Shown here one piece after another: positions 5,649 to 63,499 of a stretch of DNA of 64,000 nucleotides. The notes under the pieces were generated by a model, which made no database searches, had not been told where the DNA came from, and worked only from the letters and a program-made list of their open reading frames with translations. The stretch is taken from positions 620,001-684,000 of the forward strand of contig MU004197.1 in the NCBI GenBank assembly GCA_010093605.1. Reading direction: 5' to 3'. Origin of the DNA: Lophium mytilinum. Its lineage: Eukaryota. The stretch's first letter is position 1, and each line of letters starts with the position of its first letter. The position numbers were made by a program, and so were the translations under genes.

Positions 5649-6910
5649 TCACCTCTTCAACTTATTCTCCCAACTCCCCAACCACCTCCACCCCTTCGCA
5701 GCCTTCCCCAGCTCCTCCAGCGCCTGATTAACCACCCCCTTTCCCCCTTCCTCCCTCCTCCCCTCGATCTCCACAAAAAAGATGTAATTCCACGCCACAA
5801 TCCCACTCGGCCGCGCATTAATACTCGTCAAATTCAACCCAAACCGCTTAAAAACCTCCAACGCCTTCGCCAACGCCCCCGGATCCTCATGATCCACCGT
5901 AAACCCCACCAGCGTCTTCCACTTCGGGTGGGTGGCCTCCTGCGCACCACCTGCCTCTCCAGATGGGTGGGTGAGTAGGTCGCCCCCCGCTCTCCGCAGC
6001 ACAAAAAACCTCGTCTCATTATCCTCCGCGTCCTGAATCCCCCTCGCCAAAAACCCCAACCCATGCATCCCCGCCGCGATCTCCGACGACACAGCCGCCG
6101 ACTCCCCCGACCCATCCGCCTTCGCAATCTCCGCCGCTCTTGACGTCGACGACACATCGATCCGCTCCACCCCCTTCAGATACGTGGCTAAGAACGCATT
6201 GCACTGGCCCCACGCCTGCGGATGCGAGTACAGCTTCTTCACGCGGCTGAGATCGGCGAGCGGCGTCGCGCGGGGACGCGAAGGGTGCGGCGCCGAGCGG
6301 GTTGGGGTTGCGGTGCCGTCGTCGTGCGTGGTGATTTGGGGACCCGCCCACCCAGGAGGCAGGTGGCCGACGAGGCAGTGGCGCACGGGGACGTAGATTT
6401 CGCCGCAGACGAGGATGTCCGGGTGCTGGGCGCGCAGGTCGGCGAAGAGGTCGAGGGTGGAGACGACGGAGCCGTTGGTGGAGTTCTCGAAGGGGACGAC
6501 GCCGTGGGTGGTGGTGGCGGATTGTACGGCGGTGAAGACGTCGGCGATGGTGGGTTGGGGGTGCAGGTGGGAGGCGGGGAGGGTGGGGAAGGTGGTTAGG
6601 GTGGCCTGGGGGAGGTTAGTGTGGAGGTGGGGAGGGAGGAGGAGAGATGGGAGAGTGAGGATGGGGGTGGTAGATGATATATGGATGGAAATGACCGTTG
6701 ATTGATATAGACGATGATTTTTGAAAGAAATGAGAGGCGAGAAATGACGAAATTTTGCGGGGATTAATGCATGAGAACGCGGGTCTTAGGGAGGAATTGA
6801 GACAGAAGTGAGAATATTCGAGTAGATTGACTAAAAGCGTGCTCTCGTACCTGATGCGTATATGAAGCTTTTGGGCCTAAGAAAGCCACGGTCTCGGGTT
6901 CGTCTGCCAT
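5649..6910 (-). CDS. PHA2: Prephenate dehydratase, exons 6910-6851 and 6605-5649, ~338 aa
   Basis: N-terminal VAFLGPKASYTHQ, VVPFENSTNG, SHPQAWGQC, NETRFF, and ACT domain (PGALAKAL...NLTSINARPS...YIFFVE). Confidence 0.93.
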
Positions 6911-7772: not shown

Positions 7773-9404
7773 TCAATCATCGTAGAATTCATCTTCGTCA
7801 TCGTAATCAGCGAGCTGCTCGAAGTTGAGCTTGTAGCGGAGGATAGCTCCAATGCCACCAAAGCCTGAGATTGTGTCAGTTGAGTTCGAGATCGGTCTCT
7901 GAAGGGAAGACATACCCTTAACGAACTGATTGCCCTCAGAGGAGCGATCAGAGACAAACTCCAGCGTGGCACCAAAGTCCTGGTATTTTTCTGCCAGCCA
8001 TTCCAAGAACGGCATCTGTTCCGCGACTTCCATCTCTTGGCCGGTCTCCTTATCCATGAACAAAGTTCGGTCAGACTCCTGGAACTTGTTGGTGTGGAGG
8101 ATGACGTCGCTTCCTTCTGATGACTTCAAGGTCCAGCGAGTAATCTCGAGGTTCTCAAAGACGATCAACGTTTCGGCGGCACCAGCTTCAAGCGCCTTCA
8201 AGGTATCGTCTACACCGTAGCAAACCTTGCCAGAGTCTTGGGAAATCTCATCGAAGTACTTGTTGATAAGCTGGAAAAATTAGCGACTGGCACGAGTTGA
8301 AGAACGCGGAAATAGTACCTTCTTCTCTTGAATGAACTTGACGTTGCTCAACGTTTCAGATGACAGCTCGATGGCTTGGTTGAAGCCGTTCTCACCACCG
8401 TACGAAACGTCGACGACCTTGATGACTTTGCTTTGGAGACGCCCGTCAAACATGTCGGACTGGTTTAGATCATTCTTGAAATCGGCGGAACCAGCAAGAA
8501 TCAACCCAGCTACGTTGACCTTGTCGTTGGTAATGAAGTTCTGCACCGCAAGTTCGGAGACTTTACGGACATAGTTGTGACGCTTCTCCTCGCGGAGACG
8601 GGCGAAACGCAGCGCAGACTGCCCACCACGACCGTGCTTCTTAGGGAGATCGACGGAGAACCTGAATAGTCAGTCAGCATGCCGACTTCGAAACCTGTAT
8701 CTAACTCTAGTCCCGCTTACTTGTGCACAACATCCCGAGTATTTCCCGAAAGTGTTCCGAACAGCGCTCCGTTTCCATCCATGATGATGAAGCCAAACTT
8801 CTGGTCCGACTCGAGCAGTTCGCTCAGAGCCTCGGTATGGAACTTGTTGTCGCAGAGGTACAGGGAGGTGTTGATTGGCTTGAAAGGCTCGAAATCGATG
8901 TTGATCTTTCGTTCCTTGCCCTCGCTTGTAATGATTTCACCACAGTACACGACCAGGCCATTCGGAGGGACCTTAGAGTAGAGCTTCAAGCGCTGCTGCG
9001 TCGAGGTGATAGCCGAGAGCACGGACAGCCGATTGACACGGGACTTGATGTTGGAGGCGGTGCCCTAGAGTCTGTGAGCTACGTTGCAGCCTAGGTATGT
9101 ATGAGTCGGAGACGTACGAATTCTTCAGCCAACATCTTCGCCGCGCGAGAGACCTGGTCCTTCGGCGCTGAGAGTTGTTAGCAAGGCTGATTTGTTTCGA
9201 GAATTTCTTTTGCCGGGCTTACGGATGATGAGCGAAATCATGCTGGTGCCATTGCCACGGGCGGCTTCAAGGCGCTTTATGAGCTGTGTCCAGTGTTAGT
9301 CCTGTTTACAAAAGTTCCAAAGCATATCTGCCAGAAATATGTACCTTCTTGACCTTCCAGATCTCAATGTTCTTCTCGGCGTCATTGGCCTGGGGAGCAC
9401 TCAT
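7773..9404 (-). CDS. SUP45: Eukaryotic release factor 1, 7 exons (9404-9345, 9283-9223, 9167-9118, 9064-8721, 8661-8319, 8270-7916, 7864-7773), 434 aa
   Basis: [15 protein letters not shown] and GRGGQS motifs; all six introns are canonical GT-AG and keep the frame. Confidence 0.98.
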
Positions 9405-10122
9405 GTTGGCGGCGGGTAAAGAGTATGCGGGCTAGTTGCGGTGGGGGTTTGCGGTCTGGGAAATTTCTTTCGAAGCGACTCGTGCAGTGCCGCAACAAAG
9501 GATGTGAAGGCCGACCTTCGCGGCTTCGAGGACGTAGAGGGCCGCTGCAAAATGTCGGAGCGAAAAAAGCGGTGTTGGTGTAGGAGAAAGGATGCGCCCT
9601 CAGCTGGAGATTTAGGGCTCGGGCTGTGTGTGAGGTGGGACGGACTGACAGGGCGCTTGGCATTGTTCGTCACCGCGCCCGCTATCGCTTAGAGGCGGCG
9701 GGACTGAGTTTTAGGGCTTGCGGCCTCGTTTTGCTGCAAAATCCCAAGTCTTCCCCGGAGCTGCGTCCATGTGGTGCGAGCGCGAGAGGCGGGGGTGAAT
9801 GCCATATGGGCCCACCCCGTGATCCATCCTCTCTGTCCCCTAGCTTCCTATCTTGCGCCTGACTAGATAGACCCTCATTCCTTCCAGGTACAGCTTCACA
9901 ATGAAACGCCTTTAAATCTCTGCAATTCTCGCTGCTCCCCTGCTTCCCGATGTCAATCCGGACGCCATCGTGATAGCTCCCGCCATTGTCGCCGCCAATC
10001 TAGAGCCCGCTCACGCTACTCCACTTTTCTAGCAGTTTCATTTCCTACATTTTCTGTCATTCCCTCCTGCTTGAGGCTCCCAGCTTTTCACTCCTTCCCC
10101 AACAAGTCGTGGGACCTAGAAA

Positions 10123-43834: not shown

Positions 43835-45481
43835 CTATATCTCGACTGTCTTCAGATCGCCAACTTCACTGGCAATCCCGTTCTTGACGATCCCGTCTAT
43901 CTTCTTCGTGTCCTTATTCTCCTTCTCGCTACCGAAGCTCGTCCGGGGTGTTGAGCCCAGCAGGTCGTCGCTCGGTCGGGGTGTGTCAACGGACACGAGT
44001 TTCTCGACAGGCGTGCCGTTCCTAGGCCCTAGGTCGGTATGGACTCGAATCGGGGCTGGGTTCTCCTCCGCAACCCTCGCCAACGGGCTGGAGATGTGCG
44101 CTCTTGGGCTCGCCGTTGGCTTGGACTTCTGCGAGAAGCGTTGGGGGCTTCGTCCGCGCTCCTCGGCCGTGCTCGTTGTCGGGCTTGCGTAAGGACTGTT
44201 TGCGCTATGAGCACTGCCTGGCCCCTGGGACCCACCAACATTAGAATTAATATGTAACGCGGACTGCGGCCGCCTCTTTGGCCCACGCCGTCCGTACTTC
44301 TGATCGCAACGCCAGCGGAGGATCTCGAGGTAGGCTGGTTCGACGTTCTGGCGCTTGAACTCGCGCAGCTTGAGCTCGCCGCTGTCTTCGTCTACGAAGG
44401 GCTTGTCGGTCTCGAAATCGTCGGCGGCCATTGCGAGCAGGTGGGCCCATGAGCGTGCAACGACGTATTTGCAGTCGTAGTCGCGGCCGAAAATGATGAT
44501 CTGGCCCCATGTGCCAGCTGGTCCGGGCGCAAGATCAGTCGCCAGGTAGTTTCCTCCCCAGTCTCGAGCGAGAGGAATCCAGGCAGGATGAGCGTACGCT
44601 TTTTGGATTGCATTCGGAGGCTGGGACTCCTGGCGACTCTGCAGCTGTTCCCGCCAGAGGGGATTGGTCGATTGCTGTGCCGCGGGTGGAGGAGCCGCGG
44701 AGGACGAGGCACCGGCAAACGCCTTCAAGGGCGCTTGAGGAATTCGGATGTTGGGCTTCTTGGCAAGATACTCTTCGGCGACCTTTCGCCAGTTTTGCCA
44801 CTCGTGGACGATTTCCTCGCAGTCGAGCACCATGCAACTGAACAGCACGCCGGTGGGCAGGCCTCCGCGCTCCTGGCCGTCGTGTATTTGTAATGATTCG
44901 CGGACATCTTGCGGCAATGTGCAGTCCAGCTCGTGCTCGAGCTCGTTGACGTCGTTGGAGGTGCAGCCCTCGCAGAGGTTGTCGAACAGCTCCTCGTAGT
45001 GGGTTTCCAGCCAGCGCTCAATGCGGCCCCAGGAGTGTCCCAACGGCTGGGCCGGCGGCAGGCCTTCGTTGAAGTCACGCATGGGGATCTCGCCCGACGG
45101 GCTTTTGGCGTCGAAGGCCTCGGAGTCGGCGGTGTTTTGGCGGCTCAGCGAGGACCGCATTCCAGGGGAGTAGGGCGAGTGCGGCGACATAGGCCCCTTG
45201 GGAGAGCCGATGAAGCCATTGCTCATGGCCGGGTCGTCCTGGGCGTAGGAGGACAGGTCCACGCGTGATTCTATGCCCGTGGTCGCAACGGAGGTGAGAG
45301 GGGCGTGGCGGCTCTGGGGCAAGGGGATATGGCGGCCGGTGCGGTAGGGCGAGTCGTGGGAGGCATGGCGGTCGTTGGAGGTCATGGAGTGCCAAAAGGT
45401 CCGCATCGAGTCGGCGAAACTGCAGCACGGTGAGTAGGGAGTTTGGGAAAGGGATTTTTAGGGGAGGTCGCACCCTGCCAT
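43835..45481 (-). CDS. SMI1: Glucan synthesis regulator Smi1/Knr4, exons 45481-45474 and 45419-43835, ~530 aa
   Basis: FWHSMTSNDRHA N-terminus; Smi1/Knr4 domain (LEHELDCTLPQDVRES...HDGQE...WIPLARDWGGN...DLAPGPAGTWGQIIIFGRDYD). Confidence 0.93.
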
Positions 45482-47495
45482 GGCGGGCGACGGAGGTGCT
45501 GCAGCAGACAGCGTGTCGGCGTGTGGTGTTGACGGGGCCTAGGTGCAGTCGCAGAGCAGTAGCAGGCAGGAGAATGCAGCGATGGTGAGGGTGGTGAAGG
45601 GGGTTGGAGGTGTCGAGAAGTGAGAAGGGCGGTGTCGCGTTGGAGAGGATACTGGGAGAGAACCCTGCGGGATTGGCAGTGACGTGCGTTGGAAAAGGAG
45701 CTGGCGATGAATTGGGCCAAGCTTCGCACAAGCCTCAGGGCCAATCGAGCGTCCAACGGCCGTCAAATCGACGGCGAGGCTTGATGGCAGCAACGGGCGG
45801 CAATTGCTTGGTGCGAGGCAGAAAATGGACAACGCTGTCGCTGCGCTGGTCTGGTGTTGATGTTTCTGCGCGGTTGCTGTTTTGCATGCGGCGCTTGATG
45901 CATCCCAAATACCACTCGTCCACCACTCGCAGCATTCACTCCTGCAGCCGCCTCTAATCTACACGCCGCCACCATGCCGACCCTGTCCCGCCCGCATCTA
46001 CAGTCGATAAGTAGAGAAATACACACCACCCGGCACACATCTCTCCGTCCTCATGCCTCCTCGCGGACTAAAATAGGACGGCGATGCCCCCTCTCGCCTT
46101 CGTGCCCTGGCCACGCTCAAGTTGAAACACATCGCCCAGCGACGATCGGGAGGCAATCTCTGGCCGCTCATTGCAGGCCCAGCCCGAACTGCAACCGCCA
46201 TTCGCCGCTCGCTGGACGGTCCCTGGAACGCCGGCAGCCAAACCCTGCACCACCGCCAGAACCGCTCCAAACCGCTGCCGCCTGTGCCACACTCGCGAAC
46301 CGGCAGTGGCGAATCCTGCGAAAGAGGGGGGGGAAATGTGGAGAGGCGGTCGTCAGCAGCCTTGGACGCGAAGAGCCTCAGTTGGGAGCTTCGGTCACCG
46401 CGACGTCACTCCCGAAGTCGTTGTCGCACCGGGCGCAGAGCCGTGAGACATGTCATGTTGCCAGCGCGTTCTGCGGCATGAGACGAGGATGTTTGCGCTC
46501 CTTATCGTGATCCGGGGCAGCTAAGCAGCGTGTTCTATCGCGGGGTTGCGGGGCCGGCGAGGCTTCGAGCATGCTGGCTGCAGGTCAGCGGCGTGGATTG
46601 CTTAGATATGTAGGAAGTGCAGAGGAAGACGACGACGGTGACGCGTCTGAACACAGCCCTATCCGTGGTGCAGCTTGACGCGCTACTATCTTGTGGAGAG
46701 GTAGGATCTCAGACCCGGTCAATTGAGTTTATCAGCTGCATATGCGGTCAGAGGCATCGTTTCATTCATGATTGCTATGTAATACTAAGTATATGCTAGA
46801 TAGTAGCTGCAAATGCTAATGGCTATATTCAAGCTATGGATAAGAAGTTATATGCCTGCCGAGGATAAGTAGACCTAAGTTGTCTATGACCAACAACACC
46901 CTTTGAGACATGATATCGAGCGATCGAATTGGCAATGTGGAATTTCATCAGATTCTGAGAGCTTGTTGACCATGCTAGTTGTGCTGCCCGTGCAGTCGAT
47001 GTTCCCTCCGTCCTGCAGCCTCTTCATCGCAGAGTGCAACACCATCAGTGCATTTACCATCTTATCTTTCTAAGCCAAGCCTCACTCAGCCTGTGTCGGT
47101 TTCCGTGCAGCGGGAACCAGCTTAATCAAGTCGGCCATTTACCCGGAATCCTACAGCCGTCTCTCGGACAATTTGAGTTCCAAAGTCTCAGCCCCGTCTG
47201 CTATGCCATCCTCGCGGTCGCATCTATACGACGGTGATTGTGGCATGTGCTTCGAGGTGATGGCGCTAATTCCCCGGATCGTCGGGGCCCTGGACACGTG
47301 GGACGATCTGGTATCGAATACGAGGCCTTGGTTCCAAGCTCGCCATCAGTAAGCGCCGAGCTGAAATGACCGTCTCAGAGGGCAGCCTGTACGCCTGTCT
47401 CATTGGTCGCTGCGGGGTTTTTGTTTGAAGCATAGCTATCGCAATGCTCAGTTGGATTGCATGTTTCGAATAGATATTCATGCAACCGTTCGAAC

Positions 47496-49396
47496 CTATA
47501 AGGTATTTTTTCCAAGAAACTGCGCCAGTTCGTCTTGCAGCGGCAACAAGATGCCTTCCACAGCGGCTTGCAGGAAAACGGGGTCCTGGAGACTGCTCCC
47601 AGGGTCGCCGAAGCATCGCAGGCAGTGCGTGACTGCTGCGAGAAAGGCGGCGGATAAATTCTCCCTCTCGACCTCTGTCCATTCGTAGGCCATCGCACAT
47701 ATCGTCCATGGGTTGGATTGGCCGCCAGCTGGAAAAAGCTCACCTTCCTGGTATTTCTCGGCAGAGACGCCAAAGTAGAGCTCCAAGAGAGCCACTGCAA
47801 GCGCGAGAAGGATCGTATTTTTGTTATGGAAGGCGCGGCTTGGGGGTTTTCCATTTGTGATGGCCCCGTTTGAAGCTTCGTGAAAGTTCTGCGTCACATA
47901 AGGATGCTCGATATCAACTGGACGACTGCCATTCGAGATACGATGGAACACGATGTCTTTCTTGCCCCACTGGTCGTTGAACCACGGTGTTGCATTGAGT
48001 TGGAGTGTCGACGATGCGAGTGTGACAGCAAGGCTATATCTTTCTCTCTTGGTAAGTCTGGCTGGCCTTCCATTAACCACCGGTGGGTGTGTCAAGAGTT
48101 CCTCGAGTGTGATGAGCTCACGCCCACCTACTGCCTTCTCTTTGCGAGGCGTTACTGGGTAAGCTCCTCGAAGCTTACCTTTCTCATCTAGGGAAAATCC
48201 GATGCACGGGACAGTGATCTGAAACTTTTGAATGGCGGAGCAAAGGTCATCAATTTCTTGCAAACGTTTGGCGTCGGGTACCGATCCAGGTTCAGGGTCT
48301 GCGGAGTATGGCGGAGGTGGGTTGATCGTGCTGGACCAACTTACCCCTTTGCTTAACCTGGAAGTTGATGTTAGCTATCTGGAATTCCGTAATATATCGT
48401 TCATTCTGATTCTCATTCTTCTAGGAAATAACTGCGTAACTACTCACCTTGGCTTGTAAGGAGAAGGAGCCGGCGAAGATTCTACCGTCTCCTTCTGTTG
48501 GATTTGGATTTCAGCCTCCTGCCATGTCCCAGGATCGCTCGAGAAAGCCACAGTAAAGCAGAATTCTCGACTCATGTCGCCCTTTTTCATCACCACTCCC
48601 GAAGCAACTCCTGAAATGCGCTGTTCCAACTGTAGATTGGTGCAATGCGAAGACCTGCAAGAGCAATTCCATGATTGCACCAGCACTTGGTGCAGGTTCT
48701 TCGCATACGATTGTATCTTTTGTAGTCGCTTCGCGAACGAGGGTTTGGAAGCCTTCCGGAACGGCTCAAGTCTCTCGCTCCGATCCGTGAACCTCTCCAA
48801 TTCTTTGTTGCACTCGTCCAACTCCTCCAGCAGACCCTTGATATGCTTCTTGTTCATCCCAAACCGCACCCGTTTCCGAAATTCGTATTTCTGGTTTGCC
48901 TGGCGGGGATTCGCTATGAGCATTGCTTCGAGTTCATTCCTGGTAAGCTAGGAAGCATTTGCGGTCAGCGACGTTCACCCCAAGCAAGGAATGTGGAGGG
49001 CCTGCATACATTACTCGCCCGTTCTAGATCCAACTTGCTCGCGATCTTCTTCATGATCCTCTCGATATCCTGAATAGTGCCCTGGTACGCCTGATACGAC
49101 TCCGCAAGCTTCTCTTGCAGCTTCTCCGCCATAGACTCCTCCTTCCACAGCTCGCCATTTGGGTCCGCAATCATCTCTGCGAGGTCGAATTCTGTCGTTA
49201 TTGGGGCGAGTAGCAGCCGTAAGGTCTGCTCGTAGTGGACATGCTGGTTTCGCAGCTTCCGAATGAACTGGGGGAGTTCTCGTTCCCATCTTAGAAATGC
49301 CTTGACGGGATCTAGGCCGTCATTGTAGTCTTCGAGCGCTGAGATGAAGAGTGGCATTACCGCCAGGATCAGCCCGGCAACTTCGGCTCCACTCAT
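47496..49396 (-). CDS. Uncharacterised protein with a HeLo-like N-terminal helical domain and a kinase-C-lobe-like (catalytically dead) C-terminal domain; exons 49396-49010, 48947-48448, 48357-47496, 582 aa
   Basis: N-terminal MSGAEVAGLILAVMPLFISALEDY hydrophobic helix; C-terminal RYSLAVTLASSTLQLNATPW...W.KKDIVF...LLALAVALLELYFG...AVTHCL pattern; both introns canonical and in frame. Confidence 0.85.
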
Positions 49397-49838
49397 GGCT
49401 GGACATGCATAGCAGGTGCTCTACAGTCCGAAGCATTCCTAGGACATGGAGTAGGGAATATCATGGAGGAGAGTTTGTAAGCTTGTGGGGTGAGGGGAGA
49501 CGAGAGATGCCTCTGCGACGCTATTACCATGCGGGCTGTGTACCAGCCCCATCGACCGGGCTTCATATTCATGTCAACAATCTGGGATCTTGAGTAAGGA
49601 TAGATCAAGTTGTAATATCCATAGAACTCAAGATTAGAACTTCCAATATTGTGTAGCGCATTTAAGACCGCATGGAGAATAGAGAAATAATACCATTATT
49701 CATTCCATAACCGGCATAGCTTACCATCAAGATAGCGGAGGCCGTTTGGCGGGACAGACTTCAGCCAGTCTGCCTCGCTGGCATCAGGAAGTTTTATCAA
49801 CGAAGAAAGTCTCGCATTCATTATGTTCCCATCCGATC

Positions 49839-52800
49839 ATGTCGGATATCAGATTAGGCACCGCTGCCTGTGTGCTCCAATTTCAGTCCCTCTCCAACGG
49901 CCTTCAGACCGGCGATGACGCCGCCAGGGAACATATCACCCCGGAAGCACTCGAAGACGAGCATGGCCGCTTTAGGGTCTGGTCTGGGAACCTTGGAGCC
50001 CTCCAAAAAGGTCACAGCTCCTTGGATTACCGCCTCCGCGACTCACCACTGCTGCAAACCAATATACTGAAGTTGCTCGGAGAACTCCGGGCCAATCTCT
50101 CGGAGGCTCTCGCTGTGGTTTCTGGTAGCCGCTTACCCTACGAGAAGCAAGCTAAATATGAGAGCGAAGATGACGACGATGACTGGAGCCAGAATGAGGA
50201 AGACAGCGACGAGGACGATGACGGAGGACCCCCAAAGTCCGAGCTTGAGCAAAGATTCCTCGACACCGTTGATATAATCGACAATCTGTACAAGCTTTCT
50301 GTCAGGATTCGGTCTCCAACACTTCGCTCAAGGTCCTTGAAAGCTGCGTCTTTTAGACCAACGGATCCGGACACTGGCGTCGATACCTTTGAGCAGTATG
50401 CTCTCTTCGATGAGAAGTACACGCGGGAGCTGCTTAAATATTTCCGCCAATCTACTTCGGAGGTGGAGGATCCAGCGGATGAGTATCTCGTCGAACGCTT
50501 GAGTAAAGCTATTACTCTCAGAAGGCGTCAATTCAAGTACTGGCGACGACACCGAGATAAACTTGGGGGGTCCTCTACCGCCACTGATGCTATGCTGAAG
50601 CCGGTGCCAGTAACCCCAGACTTCTTGAGTCCTCAGCCCACACCGCAGGACGGCCAAGGAGAGCAAGAGCCGGTCCAACATACACCTTTGGCACGGAGCG
50701 AATGGGCTCCACTGTCTATGCTGTCAGGTACAGAGGCTACTCAGCACCATCGCTCACTCGATGAGATAGTGGACAGTCAATCGGTGACTTCTTACGCTAC
50801 TACCACACGAGACCTGACGGGACATGGTATTGACCTTCCTCCCCCTCCCAAACAGGCAATCGAAGACCGAGATTTCGAGTGCCCTTACTGCTACATTATC
50901 TGCCCGGCTCGTTATGGCAGAGGTCGCGCTTGGAGAACACATCTCTTACAAGACCTGCAACCATATGTCTGCACCTATGAGGATTGTACAGTTGGTGATC
51001 AGCTATTCCGGAGCCGCCGGGAATGGATTGAACATGAAGCCGGACACAGAAAGCTATGGCGATGTCCAGAGCACAAGAATTCCATTTACAAATCGAAAGC
51101 CGGGCTTGAAGATCATCTCCACGCCGAACACCCAGGAACCTTTCCAGAGGACCACATCAAGAGCATCTTGAGCATTGGAGAAACAACTTCCGTTGACTTA
51201 CGCCCGAAGTGTCCCTTATGCCTAGCTAATGCAACTATGGAGGGCGGGCTGCAAAATCACATTGCGAACCACCTAGAGAGATTCGCTGCATTTGCGCTCC
51301 CCAAGGACATCGATACAGCGGACGACCATTCTGATGCAGGAAGTGGTATTGCATCACGCGGGAGAAGTGAAGCGTACAGCGGCTCGCAAGACCTCAGTGT
51401 CAGCTCTGAAGGTGTAGATCTAGTTGATTGGGGTGCGATTGAGGGAGATACTCGATCTGGCGTTTTAATATCCAAGATAGAACGACTTGCTGGCAAGGTA
51501 GAGTCTCTTGACGCACAATTACCGACCCCGAAACCAGGGAACAAGCTCTTCAGCGATCTACTTCATCGCCTTCCTGATTCCAGAGATCAGAGAATGGACA
51601 TCTTCCTGTCTTCAGGCGAACTAGACAAACCTCCTCCTCCAAGCGAGAATACGATACCAGATTTAGTTGGTTTAGATCTGGAGACAACGGGGAGAACCCG
51701 TACTGCCAGACTGAATTTTGCAAACCTACCTCAAAGCAGTAGTGATCTACAGGCAGGTCTATTGCAACAATTTCTGGAGGCGCGCCCTGGCTACCGATCG
51801 ATGTCTGGGCTGAAATTCACCGAGGATAAATGTAGCGGTCACGCAAAATTCACAAATATCACCTCCGCAACGAACGCATTGGAAGCCATAGATGGCTCTA
51901 TATTCCCAGGAGTTATTTTCAGTATAGACGAGAACGTCGGCCCTGTCACTCGCTTTGCAGAGTTGCCTACGCTGACATCCGAATCATCAGATCGAGGAGA
52001 TGATGATTCAGATTCGTTGGTCGGTATCAAGCCTCAACGACGCAACCAAGTTGAGCATGGGCCTGCCTCTGACCCTCCTAATAAAAATCTGAAGGAATCC
52101 ACGCCGCTTTCGGGAATTCCCACTCTTCAGCAACTTTACAGTGGACAAACGATTCCGCGCAATAGCCGGCGCGACCAAAACGAAGCGTTCAATAACACTG
52201 TCTGCCTTGTGTTCACAGACATAACTGTACTCCACGTCGACGCAATCGTCAACCCCGTTGGCCGCAACCTGGCCAAAGTCGGGTCGGACCTAGGTCGTCT
52301 GGTACATAAGATCGCAGGTCCAGGATTACAGAAAGAGATAGACTCTATACAACGCCTTTACTCCACAGGCGAGGTGGTGATGACGGATGCGTACAATCTT
52401 CCGTGCAAAAAGATTATTCATGCCGTTAGGCCGCATTATGCATCCACGATGGAAGAAGTCTCTCGTGGCCTTCTTACGGAATGCTATAGACGTGCTTTAG
52501 AAACGGCCGAGCAGAACCAGCTGAGGACTATTGCGTTCCCAACGCTTAGCGCCGGCGGATTCGGGTTTCCTTCGTCAAAGGCCGCGACGGTGGCCATTCG
52601 GACAGTTAGAGATTATTTGGAAAGTGGAAGGGGAGCCTTACTCGATCGGATCATCTTTTGTGTTTTCACAGAGCGAGACTGGCAGACATATTGGGATACC
52701 TTGCCGTAAGCTCATTCTAGATTTCCGTTGTCATTCCTACCGTAGAATCGTTGGCTAATATGTTTACAATAGGATTTTCTTCCCCCCCAAGTCGAAATAC

Positions 52801-55800
52801 TCCTCAATTATTTTACCCGACCAGTCAGGTATCTCTGGCAACGACAACGCTGTCAATTCAGTCGATCCTGTCTCCACAAGTACCATCAAACCGTACTTCG
52901 AGCATCGATATTCGGCGTATGTATGGGAACTGAAAGAACTGCATGAACAGATCGAAGGCGTTGCAGAAGATCTCATAGTCTTCCGCGACAAAGTACCTGA
53001 CTTCCAAGAGACTAGCATCAGAGAACTAGTCTTCATAACTTCAACACTAGCAGAGCTGGAGAAACTGTTCGAGGGGTCTTCCACTATACACAGCATGACA
53101 GAACGAAGAGCAGCAGACCTTGATCTTATCTGCTGCGTTCTACGGAACGTCGCTGGTGGTATTCATGAGATTGTCATGCAGACAACCTATACTAGGAATA
53201 TTGGTGTTCCAACGCACAAAGATATCTGGGAAGGCTACATCTTTCATCTGCAGAATACTCAGGGCCTTACGTTCGTTGAGCTTACGGAGCTTTGCGGAAA
53301 TTTCCTCCAGAGCCTCTCCGATATCCTTAAGCTGTATGCGATGCTACTCCCACACTAAAACTTGGACTAATGAGTACTTAGAAACGGAAGAGAACCCGAC
53401 GATATGAGTTTATTACGAGACAAGTTATCTCGGTATCGCCTGAATCAGTCTGGCGGAGGTGTCCAACACGTCCCTACGAAAGTATTCGACGAAGCACTAC
53501 TTGCCCGGGGATTCAGCGCCGAGGCTTGGGAGAGCAAGGAACGTCAAGCCAACCTACTCAGGGCCAGCGACATCCCTTCCTTGAGCCGCCTGTACCAACT
53601 AGGCGAATTGGACGAGAATATGCCCACGAGTCAATCACCAAGCAGTCAAGCCAATAGCACAGTCTGTCTCATCAGACACAACATTACTCGTCTCCAGGTC
53701 GATGTCATTGTCAACTCAACGGACATGGCATTCGCCGGAGTCGGTACCCTTGATCGGGCAATATTTAAGGCTGGAGGGTTGACAATGCAAGAAGACTGCT
53801 CTAAGTTTGGCATGCTCAAGGAAGGCGGCGTTCGGCTCACCCAGGGATACTTGCTTCCATGCAGGCACGTCATACACACTGTACCGCCAGAATATTTCAG
53901 CGAGAAGTCGATGTCATTGTTAGGCAAATGCTACCAGAACGCTCTCAAGATGGCAGTCGATATTGGGGCCCGGACTATCGCGTTTCCCGCCATTGGAGCA
54001 GGGGAACTTCGATACCCAAGCGAATCGGCTCAGGTCGGCATGGCGGAGGTTCGCAAATTTCTGGACGAGAATAGAATCACTAAGATCGAGAAGATTATTT
54101 TCTGCGTGTATGGAGACTATGAGGAGAATACATACAAGAAAATGCTTCCGTAAGTCTATCCTAATCACCTCCATATCTTGGACACTCCAAGTTGAGCTCC
54201 ACCATACTAGTCCAGTACAAGTTTTTGACATCATTCAGGCAATTCTTCCCTCCAATCGATCATAATGTCAACAAGGCTTTGGCCGAGATCGGCGCCGAAA
54301 GAATAGTTGAAAGGCGACTCGAATCAATTGGCAGCACCCCAATCCAAATACCCAGCAGAAACCGGAACTCTCAATATACCCTTAGACCAAGTGCAGAAGG
54401 GTCAAAAGGGCAGAAAAGCGTCAAGTTCTCACATTCTCCAAACACAACTCCGCCACGTCCACTAAACCCCGATGAGATAGAAGCTGTTGAGAGATTCGAA
54501 GCACATGCGAACAGCTGTGACCACTGCGAGGATCCAATACACGTCTACCGGACCTATGGAAGCCTCTGCGAAGACGGGAATAGTCTCGCAGAAGAGGTAG
54601 CAGAGCTTCTATTCATCGAATCAGGCGGCAATGTCTACAGTACAGCGCTGCAAAATGGCCATCGAGTCGAGCTTGACTTCCCAGATGCTTACGGAGTGAC
54701 CAAGCGCCTGCTCAGGGCGATAAACGAAAGCATACGCGAGCCGGGTAGGGGTTCCTTCGTCAAGACGTGGTATACTCCAACTCCTCAAAGCGACTCCGAA
54801 GATCTGCAATGGAAGGAGTCTCCGACAAAGGAAGACGCTCCGCCAGAGGTGTGGAGTAAAGACTGGGACTCGTTTGAAGCTGTGAACTATGGCAGCGAAC
54901 CATTACAAACGAAATATCCGTTTGCAGCAGATGCAGATACCAAAGAGGTTATAGAGAAGACGAGCGACCAGCCTACAGCTCGGGAAACCCACGCCAGGTT
55001 CTCCGATCCTCCACATGAGCAGCTCGGCGGTGTTGAGTCCCAAGCCAGCAATAGGGAAAGCATCCCATCGCGAACGCGGTCACCTCCCCCGATAGGGCCG
55101 CCATACGATCTCCAGCCTCTTCTGGAAGGCCTGATCCACGGCCGTGCTAGCAAAGAAGCTTTTGAACCCCACGCCGACAGTAGTGAAAGCTTTCCAGCCG
55201 AGCTGCTAGAGGGGCACTATTCATACACGGATCCCGCCGGGATGTATAGAGATACTATTTCCTGGCGAGGGACCAAACAGCCTACAGATCTGAAGCCTTC
55301 TGATCCCGACACTAAGAAATCCGGTTCCTTAGCAATACCCGCCCGCGGCAGCCAAAAGAGCATCTTGCGGCAACCTACCCCGAAATTCCCGGAAGACGCC
55401 AATGTGATACGAGAAGGCGCTGCTCCAGCCAAGGGCGCGGAACCCAAAGGAGTACCAGCCGGAGCCCGGTGGACCAAGATCGACCGACGTCTCGTCAACC
55501 CTGCGGCTTTGGACGAGGCAAAAGAGCGGTTCGAAGAGCGCATCGACTCCGTCGTCGTTTTACGCGTGCTGACGAAAGAGGAGATCCAAGCGCTGGCAAC
55601 TCGCACAGAGCAGATCCGTGAGTCGAGAACGGACGAGTGGCTTGAGAAGCGTCAGGAAGCAAGACGGGGTTCCTTCGACGGAGTATCCAAGCCTAGCAAA
55701 GGGCAGCGCACGCGGTTGACTACGCTTGACCGGCAACTCGTGAGTCCTGAGGCATTGAAAGAAGCTGGAGAGAACTTTGAGGAGCGTCTGGATAGCGTTG

Positions 55801-56315
55801 TTGTACGACGCGGCTTGAGCGAAGAGGAAATTGAGGAGCTTGCGGATCGGACGAGAAAACTTCGGGACGCGAGACCTGCCGCGTTCACGATCGAAGCGCC
55901 TTCGCAGCTCTCATCAGTACAGGTTTCTACAAAGCCACCTCAGCCCCAGAAACCGGATGATCCGCGGGATCATTTCATGGAAGATGGGGGCAAGAAATAC
56001 CCCGGGAAGACCGTGTCGGCAGCAGAACTCTTCGCTCTCCCCGAACTGCGCCGTAATTTTGAGGCTCCCTCTCGCTCGTCAACGGGGTCGCCGCATGTCC
56101 TACCCAGCAGCTATCTCAATCAAGTCAAGGGAGAGTATGCGGACCAGCCTGATGTTGTTGGACGCTTCCAGCAGGTGCTAAGAGATTTCCAGAGCGGGCG
56201 GATCGATTCGCCTGCTGCTTTACATGAGATCTCTAAGCTTTTTGAGGGAAAGCCGGACCTGATTCGAGGTTTCAATATTTTCTTGCCGCCTGGATACAGG
56301 ACCGAGGAGTCGTGA
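49839..56315 (+). CDS. Giant mosaic protein (~2090 aa): helical N-domain, C2H2 fingers, RRM-like domain, 2 macrodomains, Cys/His module, duplicated RWTKIDRRLV module, PAH domain; exons 49839-52705, 52773-53333, 53382-54149, 54239-56315
   Basis: Three GT-AG phase-2 introns with branch sites join four ORFs into one 6273-nt frame; domain motifs read directly from the translation. Confidence 0.8.
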
Positions 56316-61835: not shown

Positions 61836-62287
61836 CTACGAAAAGCTGACAAACTTGGGATCCCTCGGCCTCCCATCCGCGCCGATCCCGTTCCGCCTGA
61901 ACCCCTCCTGCACCCACAACCGCCTCGCCTCGTCGAATCCCACGCGCTGCCTTTTCATGATCGCCTGTACTTCTTTCTTCGCTTTATCGTCTAACCCAGC
62001 GCGGGAATCCCCGGCTTCGATGTTCTCGGAGAGGTTGAAGGAGCTGGAGGATAGCCCGGCTTCGATGTCGCCGGTGAAGGAAGACGGGAGGCGCTGATAG
62101 AGATGCGGGAAGGGGTTTGGAAGGTTGACAGTCGGGAGGCGGTGGGTCCAGTGGGAACGGGTGTAGTAGAGGGCTGTGGATGGTGTTAGTTTGGTGGACG
62201 CTGGTGGAGGGGGATGAGGGGCAACGAACCTGTAGAAAGGATGAGGAGGAGAAGAAAGAGGTAGGTGGAGTAGGCTATGTAGCTCAT
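61836..62287 (-). CDS. Small conserved fungal protein (UPF0357 / YCL012C-like), exons 62287-62230 and 62173-61836, 131 aa
   Basis: N-terminal TM, then SFTGDIEAGLSSSSFNLSENIEAGDSRAGLD...FDEARR...NGIGADGRPRDPKFVSFS. Not present as a single ORF in the supplied track. Confidence 0.85.
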
Positions 62288-62689
62288 ATTTGCGGTTCTT
62301 GTGGGTTTACGCGCTGGGTGATGTAGAGGGCGTTGGTGCACTTCCGCCGCGTCCGGAGGGACTACGCGGTTCTGAACAGTAGTAACACAAGGAAAAGATG
62401 TCGCGGTGGATAGCTGGGTATACGCAGGCGGGAGGGCTCCCAGCGCTGCTATTAGAGCTTAGAGGTGGCGTAGTCGAGGAGAGTGAGAGAGTGAATGAAG
62501 CGTGATACCTACCTGTCTCTCCCCGAACGTGGTCGTCAGCTGCTGCGGCGGGTTGCATGACTAAACGGGTGTATTTTCGGATTGCAGTTCTTCCATGCCG
62601 ACCGCGCCCGCACGGACGCCCACACAAATCGAGCCTCGAACTTCACGCGCGAGACGACTTGCTAGACAATACCCAAACACGCAGGTACA

Positions 62690-63499
62690 ATGGCGACCAA
62701 CATTTCCTCGGACCTGATTTGGGAGGTTACCCGTACGTCTACTCCCCTCCCGAAATACTAGGAAGAACAGGAAATCAAAATGGAGGATCGAGAGAAATTC
62801 GAGGAAGATCGAGAGCTGATGAAAGACCAGGCGGCCACAGTGCCTATCTCGTGAAGAGGAAGGGTGCCGGTGGTGTGCAGTTCTCGCGCGACCCGTTGAA
62901 CTTGAAGAACCAGTACAGGCGGAAGGTCAGATTCCATCCCGATCTTCAATTCCTGGATTTGAACATTTAGCTAACAATGCGCAGTACGAGGGTGTCGCCA
63001 ATGACCAGGTACGTTAACCACACCAGATTCCGAAGAGCTCGATTGAACGATTTGGATGCTTGGGATATTGAGAACACTTGGACAATGGCTTATGCAGGAA
63101 ACAGGCCTTCGGTGTCCAACCCTCCGCTGACGGCGGCGTTATCCTCTCGGTCAAGAAGTCCGACAAGTCCCACAAGCCCGCCTCCTCTTTGCAGACCACC
63201 ACATTCGGCTCCGGAAAGTCGTCGCGGAAGTACGTAGACCTTCTTCTCCGATTTCCAGGAGATATCTGTCACGAGCCACGTGGAAATGGGAGCACGCTGG
63301 CATTATTGAACCGGTAGCTAATCGATGTTTTAGGACCTACTCTAGCATCGTGAACAGCACCACCAAGCGCAGCTACCGCCCCGACCTCCGCGCCGAGGCT
63401 GTCTCGCGCGCCTCTGCCATCCGCAAGAGCCAGAAGCCCGTCAAGGCCGACCGACCAAGCAAGCTGAGGGGAGCCAAGGCGAAGGCTGCTGCTGCGTAA
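62690..63499 (+). CDS. RPL28: 60S ribosomal protein eL28 (L28e), 5 exons (62690-62732, 62831-62925, 62985-63008, 63105-63229, 63334-63499), 150 aa
   Basis: SSDLIWEVTR...AYLVKR...QFSRDPLNLKN and YRPDLRAEAVSRASAI motifs. Symbol follows metazoan eL28 naming, not yeast RPL28/uL15. Confidence 0.93.

Follow-up and report, generated by a model that had tools for sequence, protein, structure and literature searches.

The window analysed here is a stretch of 64,000 nucleotides (nt) from Lophium mytilinum (GenBank assembly GCA_010093605.1, contig MU004197.1, positions 620,001 to 684,000 of the forward strand), and all coordinates without a locus name are those of the window. It contains two divergently transcribed genes, here called gene A and gene B, with start codons at 49396 (minus strand) and 49839 (plus strand) and 442 nt between them. 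The product of gene A is predicted to combine an N-terminal helical bundle with a pseudokinase domain of the family DUF7580, and that of gene B joins a constant N-terminal head with zinc fingers to a tail that carries two Macro domains at this locus. Relatives of the two genes lie head-to-head in orthologous as well as in distant paralogous loci, and the two products are very probably functionally coupled. The coupling is tentatively read as running from a sensor (gene B) to an executioner (gene A), a direction for which there is slightly less to say than against it. Taken as a whole, the statement that the locus belongs to a divergent two-gene module widespread in filamentous ascomycetes, with signalling from sensor to executioner, is considered evenly poised.

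Gene structure and transcription

The gene models and the region between them are as follows.

47496..49396, minus strand: gene A, 582 amino acids (aa), identical to P0105; exons 49396-49010, 48947-48448 and 48357-47496
49397..49838, no strand: shared divergent promoter region, the 442 nt between the start codons
49839..56315, plus strand: gene B, 2090 aa, identical to P0003; exons 49839-52705, 52773-53333, 53382-54149 and 54239-56315

The introns of gene A are 62 and 90 nt long and those of gene B, all canonical, are 67, 48 and 89 nt. Both predicted products are letter-for-letter identical to deposited proteins of L. mytilinum (P0105 for gene A, P0003 for gene B). Gene B is one giant gene and not three, as the apparent stop codons that end its open reading frames (ORFs) at 52707-52709 and 54151-54153 sit within GTAAG splice donors. 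The TAA inside both of these donors (introns 52706-52772 and 54150-54238) makes a naive reading of the ORFs yield three genes, which is a trap for ORF-based annotation.

All five predicted introns are precisely spliced out in contigs of the public run X1, the only run that contains this stretch; the run is labelled 'RNA?' and its depth was not used. The X1 contigs are read as complementary DNA because all five introns are missing from them, and both genes are transcribed. A single contig of 7370 nt covers all four exons of gene B. The 5' ends of the contigs are at 49473 for gene A (with adapter letters beyond) and at 49796 for gene B, 322 nt apart. The initial annotation, made from the sequence of the window, had proposed the divergent pair with these start codons and this spacing, and both the ORFs and the transcript contigs bear it out. 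In an intergenic alignment of the window and six orthologous loci no conserved block was found, and the mean column identity is 42%.

Linkage and co-divergence of the two families

Genes A and B each have about one relative per species in the Pleosporales, Mytilinidiales, Hysteriales and Botryosphaeriales, with identities between species of 42-73% for gene A and 40-82% for gene B. Gene B has 102 long relatives, and the first 84 of them are each listed with a Macro domain. The patchy presence and absence expected in the initial annotation was thus not encountered, the pair being present in about one copy per species throughout these four Dothideomycete orders with a largely conserved Macro architecture. 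Locus tags of the two genes are adjacent in seven of the eight species with positional tags in both lists, the exception being Didymella heteroderae, and in 40 species, by a reading of the two tables, the contigs that carry the two proteins are equal in length.

Metagenomes were scanned with the gene A alignment, and linkage was counted from the gene A side in loci with at least 1000 base pairs (bp) upstream, hereafter testable loci. The scan returned 69 loci, of which 39 are of the orthologue type and 30 are not; the latter comprise 26 loci with 24-38% identity to gene A and four matches of only 47 aa, and 22 of the 30 are testable. The head of gene B was found on the opposite strand in 21 of 21 testable orthologous loci, at a distance of 401-789 bp, and head-to-head in 15 of 22 testable paralogous loci (10 distinct sequences). 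The linkage test of both N-terminal cores that the initial annotation had proposed is therefore positive at both levels. The gap between the two genes in the paralogous pairs is 186-384 bp, except in locus L050, where only the C-terminal part of gene A was matched. In each of the seven paralogous loci that lack a partner, the match is either partial or has stop codons in it. Since distant paralogous pairs are also linked head-to-head, the pairing belongs to both families and not only to this locus.

The gene downstream of gene A, which encodes an SMI1/KNR4 protein, served as a synteny control. It lies downstream in 11 of 11 orthologous loci, as against 0 of 11 paralogous loci with enough flank.

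Distances between the gene B relatives were calculated from the zinc-finger blocks, and ten near-identical loci as well as loci without both segments were dropped before the Mantel test. The distance matrices of A and B agree with r = 0.93 for 19 pairs and r = 0.87 for the 10 most distant ones, values that are reached by none of 5000 permutations and that are inflated by the kinship of the source organisms. Both matrices show the same four clades. At least two of these clades coexist in single genomes such as those of Ascochyta rabiei and Lophium and are therefore paralogous.

Gene A

Two regions are distinguished in the product of gene A.

48765..49396, minus strand: residues ~1-190, helical bundle with a hydrophobic, Gly-rich first helix; includes intron 1
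47523..48728, minus strand: residues 203-574, DUF7580 (PF24476), kinase fold without catalytic motifs, E 4.9e-26; includes intron 2

An AlphaFold2 model built with 83 orthologues has a predicted local distance difference test (pLDDT) value of 82 and consists of a helical bundle followed by a beta/alpha domain, with helices of the bundle at residues 3-27, 37-66, 87-121, 162-189 and 199-221. Fold matches of the bundle in VIA include the N-terminal domain of Sw-5b (Z 9.8) and the coiled-coil domain of Rx (Rx-CC, Z 8.1), plant coiled-coil (CC) domains in general scoring Z 8-10 where the tool's noise bar for helical bundles is about 13. The top 50 fold matches of the bundle do not include MLKL, and HET-S is absent from the 50 VIA rows listed for gene A. 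In a language-model look-up (Atlas) with residues 1-200 the nearest named clusters are HeLo, with a score of 0.94 and 176 of 256 features shared. A paralogue group of 51 members is homologous to the gene A group over its full length (hhalign E 1.6e-79).

P0105 reaches 92.5 bits for DUF7580, where the cut-off is 27, and the family is matched by all 83 orthologues and all 51 paralogues. All of the top 50 Foldseek rows for gene A are protein kinase domains (probability 0.89-1.0, E 0.009-0.05). In VIA, a search independent of Foldseek, residues ~209-580 match kinases and pseudokinases of the tyrosine kinase-like type with Z 7.4-8.8, led by CTR1 (8.8), the pseudokinase of IRAK3 (8.3), RIPK1 and RIPK2 (8.1-8.2) and AtMLKL3 (7.5), with BIR2 also among them. 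P0105 contains none of the four patterns GxGxxG, VAIK, HRD and DFG; among the 83 orthologues, two have HRD within DUF7580, one has DFG and none has GxGxxG there. The alignment with distant paralogues shows the blocks 'LAVTLASSVLQLH-TPWL--W-K-DI-F' and 'RN--L-ALG-ALLEL--G', which are read from their sequence as the putative catalytic-loop and alpha-F regions of a kinase and are without HRD and DFG; Q/N-x-W and H/Q-P-[YF] stand in the alignment at the positions of the lost motifs. DUF7580 is best termed a pseudokinase, because it has a kinase fold and lacks the catalytic motifs. The modelled architecture of gene A, a helical bundle followed by a pseudokinase, is MLKL-like, which agrees with the executioner-like build that had been attributed to it. 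A second DUF7580 paralogue of L. mytilinum, P0297 (460 aa), is located on another contig.

Gene B

The following features were located in gene B.

49839..50573, plus strand: N-core, residues ~1-245, helical bundle of the CC or four-helix-bundle type in the AlphaFold2 model, with an acidic loop at ~110-135
50865..51296, plus strand: zinc-finger block, residues ~343-486, four sites of the C2H2 type; PF26082 (AcuF-like) in the precomputed Pfam annotation
52248..52595, plus strand: Macro domain 1, MacroD type, residues 804-919; PF01661 E 6e-26, PARP14 1e-29, MACROD2 2e-29
53710..54030, plus strand: Macro domain 2 (exon 3), MacroD type; PF01661 E 4e-23, PARP14 2e-30, MACROD1 5.5e-30
55464-55619 and 55704-55865, plus strand: two repeats of ~52 aa ('W/R-T-x-[IL]-D-R-x-L-V-x-P-x-A-L...'), read from the translation
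56154..56285, plus strand: C-terminal paired amphipathic helix (PAH), Sin3-type; PF02671 E 2e-10, 40.6 bits against a cut-off of 21.3

The head, which comprises approximately the first 500 residues, is modelled by AlphaFold2 as one compact unit in which the bundle packs against the four zinc sites (pLDDT 81.5, predicted template modelling score 0.74). Its bundle matches Rx-CC (Z 10.8), Sw-5b (10.5), MLKL (8.7) and HET-S (6.8) in VIA, all under the tool's noise bar for helical bundles. Conserved residues of the N-core are W48, A54, L62, R228 and R229. Twelve Cys/His columns of the zinc-finger block are invariant in 66 sequences (C348, C351, H368, C378, C383, H399, H403, C409, H426, C458, H474 and H478). 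Foldseek returned only weak matches of the head to C2H2 arrays and nothing at E ≤ 0.001, and an Atlas look-up with the stored orthologue P0004 gave no usable match for the head.

The two Macro domains of P0003 reach 167.9 bits together against PF01661, and their closest solved relatives are MACROD1, MACROD2 and PARP14. They are 38% identical to each other. Each ends in '...LP', followed by an intron of the same phase at the same place and then by 'xFFPP' (residues 958 and 1401); their similarity, the shared intron place and the 'FFPP' after each are the reasons for deriving them from an internal duplication. For Macro 1, a Gly is aligned with the Asp of the Gly-rich loop; for Macro 2, G-E-L-R takes the place of the later G-x-[FY]-G stretch, and a Phe is aligned with a His. 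Some of these motif residues are presumably catalytic or essential.

The two ~52-aa repeats, which probably correspond to PF26118 of the precomputed list as placed here, are the only part of exon 4 with a match in a distant partner (69% identity, L040/L041). Of the 102 long relatives, those of Lophium and Mytilinidion and a single distant protein are the only ones with the PAH. The tails of the orthologue group contain PAH, an EVH1-like PH_24 domain and an RPA_C winged helix, with Myb or HSF domains in some relatives. A local Pfam scan assigned no family to exon 2, to the first 334 aa of exon 4 or to residues 561-767, and it matched neither PF26082 nor PF26118, two models that this copy of Pfam presumably does not include. 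A stretch before Macro 1 had been suspected by eye to be RRM-like; Pfam finds RRM only in the relatives P0323 and P0073, and not here.

Variety of the gene B tails

The initial annotation had described a constant N-terminal core followed by unrelated domains, and at the level of the gene B family this holds true. At E ≤ 1e-3, 12,239 clusters match a profile of the head, which is always N-terminal among the matches listed. Tails were sampled in 43 of 150 listed clusters, namely proteins of at least 750 aa among approximately the first hundred rows that had not been scanned before. Macro domains were found in nine of the 43, NACHT-type domains in six, ankyrin or WD40 repeats in three, and tetratricopeptide repeats (TPR), kinase, homeobox and RRM domains in two each; RhoGEF, Rsc7 and MUN/C2 occur once each, and no C-terminal domain was found in 14. 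The domains after the head in the metagenomic paralogous pairs are as follows.

L040: BAG
L044: ULD_2 (ubiquitin-like)
L050: Pkinase
L053: HET and NACHT in one open frame of 1529 aa, then WD40 repeats in the adjoining frame
L055: Cyt-b5 and BAG
L063: Pkinase and HET

Some paralogous gene B proteins, including those of L053, P0096 and P0098, carry HET-NACHT-WD40, NACHT-ankyrin or NB-ARC-TPR modules. NACHT, NB-ARC, gasdermin and protease domains had been reported as missing from both proteins of the window, and the Pfam scan of P0003 and P0105 agrees. The description of the pair as independent of NOD-like receptors (NLRs) is too strong for the family, some paralogous members of which have NLR-type modules.

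At L053:1-5741 (minus strand) a full HET-NACHT-WD40 receptor with a zinc-finger head stands head-to-head with a DUF7580 gene. At L050:2612-3535 the C-terminal ~210 residues of DUF7580 were matched about 315 bp from the start of the partner, and the head of a kinase-tailed gene B adjoins; this may be a shortened gene A. L042 has a DUF7580 match at 8429-9745 with two in-frame stops and no partner with a gene B head, and a CHAT (caspase-like) ORF at 5814-6269 (minus strand) upstream. L. mytilinum itself has a second protein with the gene B head on another contig, P0087 (1926 aa), with a kinase, a bromodomain, an SH3 domain and a zinc ribbon.

Neighbouring genes

43835..45406, minus strand: SMI1/KNR4 gene, neighbour downstream of gene A; PF09346 E 1e-19
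61839-62306, minus strand: DUF2015 ORF, E 1e-31
62506-62967, plus strand: weak ribosomal L28e-like match, E 4e-4

The pair had been placed between SMI1 and a block of orphan genes. The SMI1/KNR4 gene is confirmed, and for the four ORFs downstream of gene B (56.6-60.9 kb) Pfam gives nothing at E ≤ 0.01, which fits the term 'orphan'; the DUF2015 and L28e-like ORFs are situated at the far end of this block. No Pfam family was found for the ORF at 45899-46510, in the gap between gene A and SMI1. The spliced contig of gene A (3813 nt) extends about 1.9 kb beyond the stop codon of gene A toward the start of SMI1 (window ~45528-47400), which represents either a very long 3' untranslated region or overlapping transcripts of gene A and SMI1. 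Gene order is usually scrambled in Dothideomycetes ('mesosynteny'), and against this background it is worth recording that SMI1, gene A and gene B follow one another in this order in all 11 metagenomic loci of the orthologue type that have enough flank.

Proposed function and alternative explanations

In the sensor-to-executioner reading the tail of gene B would sense a cue, which at this locus would be a ligand or mark of the ADP-ribose type bound by the Macro domains. The constant head of gene B would then act on the pseudokinase domain of gene A, and the helical bundle of gene A would thereby be released to act on membranes, which by analogy with MLKL it may permeabilise. The contact between the two proteins would be made by folded domains, with neither an amyloid motif nor a protease, and the outcome would be regulated cell death or a response of the immune type, following the logic of RIPK3-MLKL or NWD2-HET-S. 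An immune or cell-death role of the pair is suggested by this comparison.

Several observations weigh against this reading. The N-terminal bundle of gene A had been called HeLo-like on the strength of its hydrophobic helix; the helix is present, and membership in HeLo is no more than suggested by the Atlas result. No member of the group reaches the gathering score of 23.2 bits for the Pfam family HeLo (PF14479), the best E being 0.0025, and sub-threshold matches occur in 34 of the 83 orthologues and in none of the 51 members of the paralogue group. The modelled helical bundles of both proteins match known folds at Z 8-11, below the noise bar of the tool, and the kinase-fold scores of gene A are moderate (Z 8-9; Foldseek E 0.009-0.05). 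A search of the gene A profile against the sequences of solved structures gave a single row at chance level (E = 1). Judged by their sequences, the two Macro domains each deviate at one motif from what is usual in MacroD, so that they may be readers or hydrolases. Adjacency among orthologues alone proves little, because SMI1 is syntenic too. The occurrence of about one copy per species and the stable Macro architecture across Dothideomycetes are unlike the patchy, fast-changing loci that are typical of non-self recognition in fungi, and the tail domains of the orthologue group look, by their sequence, like nuclear or chromatin parts.

The last two points lead to the strongest rival, a coupled housekeeping regulatory pair in which gene B would serve as a scaffold in the nucleus or on chromatin and read marks of ADP-ribose or O-acetyl-ADP-ribose, with gene A as its pseudokinase-type regulator or adaptor. 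This explanation is held to be somewhat unlikely, and class-wide conservation and the chromatin-like tail (PAH, RPA_C, PH_24/EVH1-like, Myb and HSF domains) fit it equally well. It also accommodates the presence of both genes in a single transcript assembly and the many relatives of the gene B head that carry domains of ordinary cell biology, such as RhoGEF, homeobox, RRM, Rsc7 and MUN/C2. It is less at ease with the build of gene A, in which a hydrophobic first helix, a bundle and a pseudokinase follow the layout of the executioner MLKL, and with the HET, NACHT-WD40, NACHT-ankyrin and NB-ARC-TPR modules of paralogous gene B proteins, which are typical of fungal immune-type receptors. An integrated decoy, in which the tail domains of gene B would be copies of host proteins that bait effectors or toxins of pathogens and modification of the bait would trigger gene A, is considered very unlikely. 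The unusually wide 'host-like' range of domains joined to the constant head (kinase, bromodomain, SH3, BAG, Sec7, RhoGEF, homeobox, RRM, Macro, PAH) speaks for such a system; against it, the tail of this orthologue group is conserved class-wide and not swapped between close relatives, and some of the long public gene models may be gene fusions. The proposal that adjacency is inherited microsynteny with a shared bidirectional promoter, the products not cooperating, is already disfavoured and has hardly any probability left. It draws on the equally conserved SMI1 neighbour of the orthologous loci and on the lack of a conserved promoter block, and is contradicted by the distant paralogous pairs (24-38% identity), which stay head-to-head although SMI1 was retained in 0 of 11 paralogous loci, by the congruent distances of A and B across four clades, and by the finding that all partnerless loci are partial or stop-containing matches.

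If the sensor-to-executioner reading is extended to the whole of the two families, the locus would belong to a large, undescribed necroptosis-like system of filamentous ascomycetes. Constant CC-like and zinc-finger heads with swappable tails (NLR modules, kinases, HET/TIR, BAG, Macro and others) would each directly license a neighbouring MLKL-like HeLo-pseudokinase executioner by domain contact, with neither amyloid nor protease involved, and the Macro domains of this locus would sense signals or marks derived from ADP-ribose, for example from HET/TIR NAD hydrolases or ADP-ribosylating toxins. This extension is unlikely as it stands.

Relation to known systems

Fungal cell-death pathways are described in passages of a 2025 review as two-gene clusters, in which either an NLR acts on a HeLo protein through amyloid templating or a protease acts on a gasdermin (PMC12881547). 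The same passages report that in fungi a HeLo-like domain is in some cases fused, in an MLKL-like manner, to a kinase or pseudokinase, and they name no activator for such proteins (PMC12881547).

MLKL and the plant MLKLs (AtMLKL1-3) share with gene A an N-terminal helical bundle followed by a kinase fold without catalytic motifs. Gene A differs in that it has no detectable sequence match to solved MLKL chains and in that its proposed activator is the neighbouring protein with the zinc-finger head, and not a RHIM kinase. HET-S/NWD2 and HELLP/PNT1 are likewise adjacent two-gene units with a HeLo-type bundle protein beside a modular, sensor-like protein, and some paralogous pairs have a true NLR as partner, as in HET-S/NWD2 (L053: HET-NACHT-WD40). 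The C-terminus of gene A, however, is a folded kinase-like domain of ~370 aa and not a short prion-forming motif; the head of gene B is a folded unit of ~500 aa and not an amyloid motif of 21 residues, and the gene B of this locus is without NACHT or NB-ARC. HET-s_218-289 (PF11558) had no match in the Pfam scan of P0105, and no search aimed at amyloid motifs was made. The gasdermin and protease clusters (HET-Q1/HET-Q2, CHAT-TPR) follow the same logic of a two-gene cell-death cluster (PMC12881547); neither gasdermin nor protease is present in A or B. The degenerate DUF7580 locus L042 has its CHAT ORF upstream, CHAT being the type of protease that is paired with fungal gasdermins.

In plants, the paired NLRs RGA4/RGA5 and RRS1/RPS4 are encoded head-to-head, and one partner of each pair has unusual extra domains. 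In their fold, the bundles of A and B are similar to plant CC domains (Z 8.1 and 10.8 to Rx-CC, scores within the range of helical-bundle noise); in contrast to the plant pairs, neither protein at this locus is an NLR. Both Macro domains of gene B match those of MacroD1, MacroD2 and PARP14 over the whole domain (E 1e-29 to 5e-30), and differ from them in being arranged in tandem within a 2090-aa protein with the gene B head, each off-pattern at one motif. SltA/SltB is described as another system of Pezizomycotina with a pseudokinase and a zinc-finger protein.

Among the papers searched there is none that names DUF7580 or the AcuF-like finger, and the reviews and surveys searched contain no description of the pairing of A and B. 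The searched text of PMC9815663 has no mention of 'zinc finger' or 'C2H2', and that of PMC10197012 mentions neither 'zinc finger' nor 'macro domain'. Already known are fungal architectures of the MLKL type and clusters of two genes for cell death.

Biological significance

Genomics alone has thus provided a candidate partner for the MLKL-like proteins of fungi, namely a family that counts about 12,000 clusters and whose members join a fixed head to highly variable tails. If the coupling is true, the pair would be a testable fungal counterpart of RIPK3-MLKL signalling, a role would be assigned to two domains of unknown function, and the tails would form a catalogue of what fungi may sense. If the pair has a housekeeping function, it would still be a conserved module of a pseudokinase and an ADP-ribose reader that is specific to filamentous ascomycetes.

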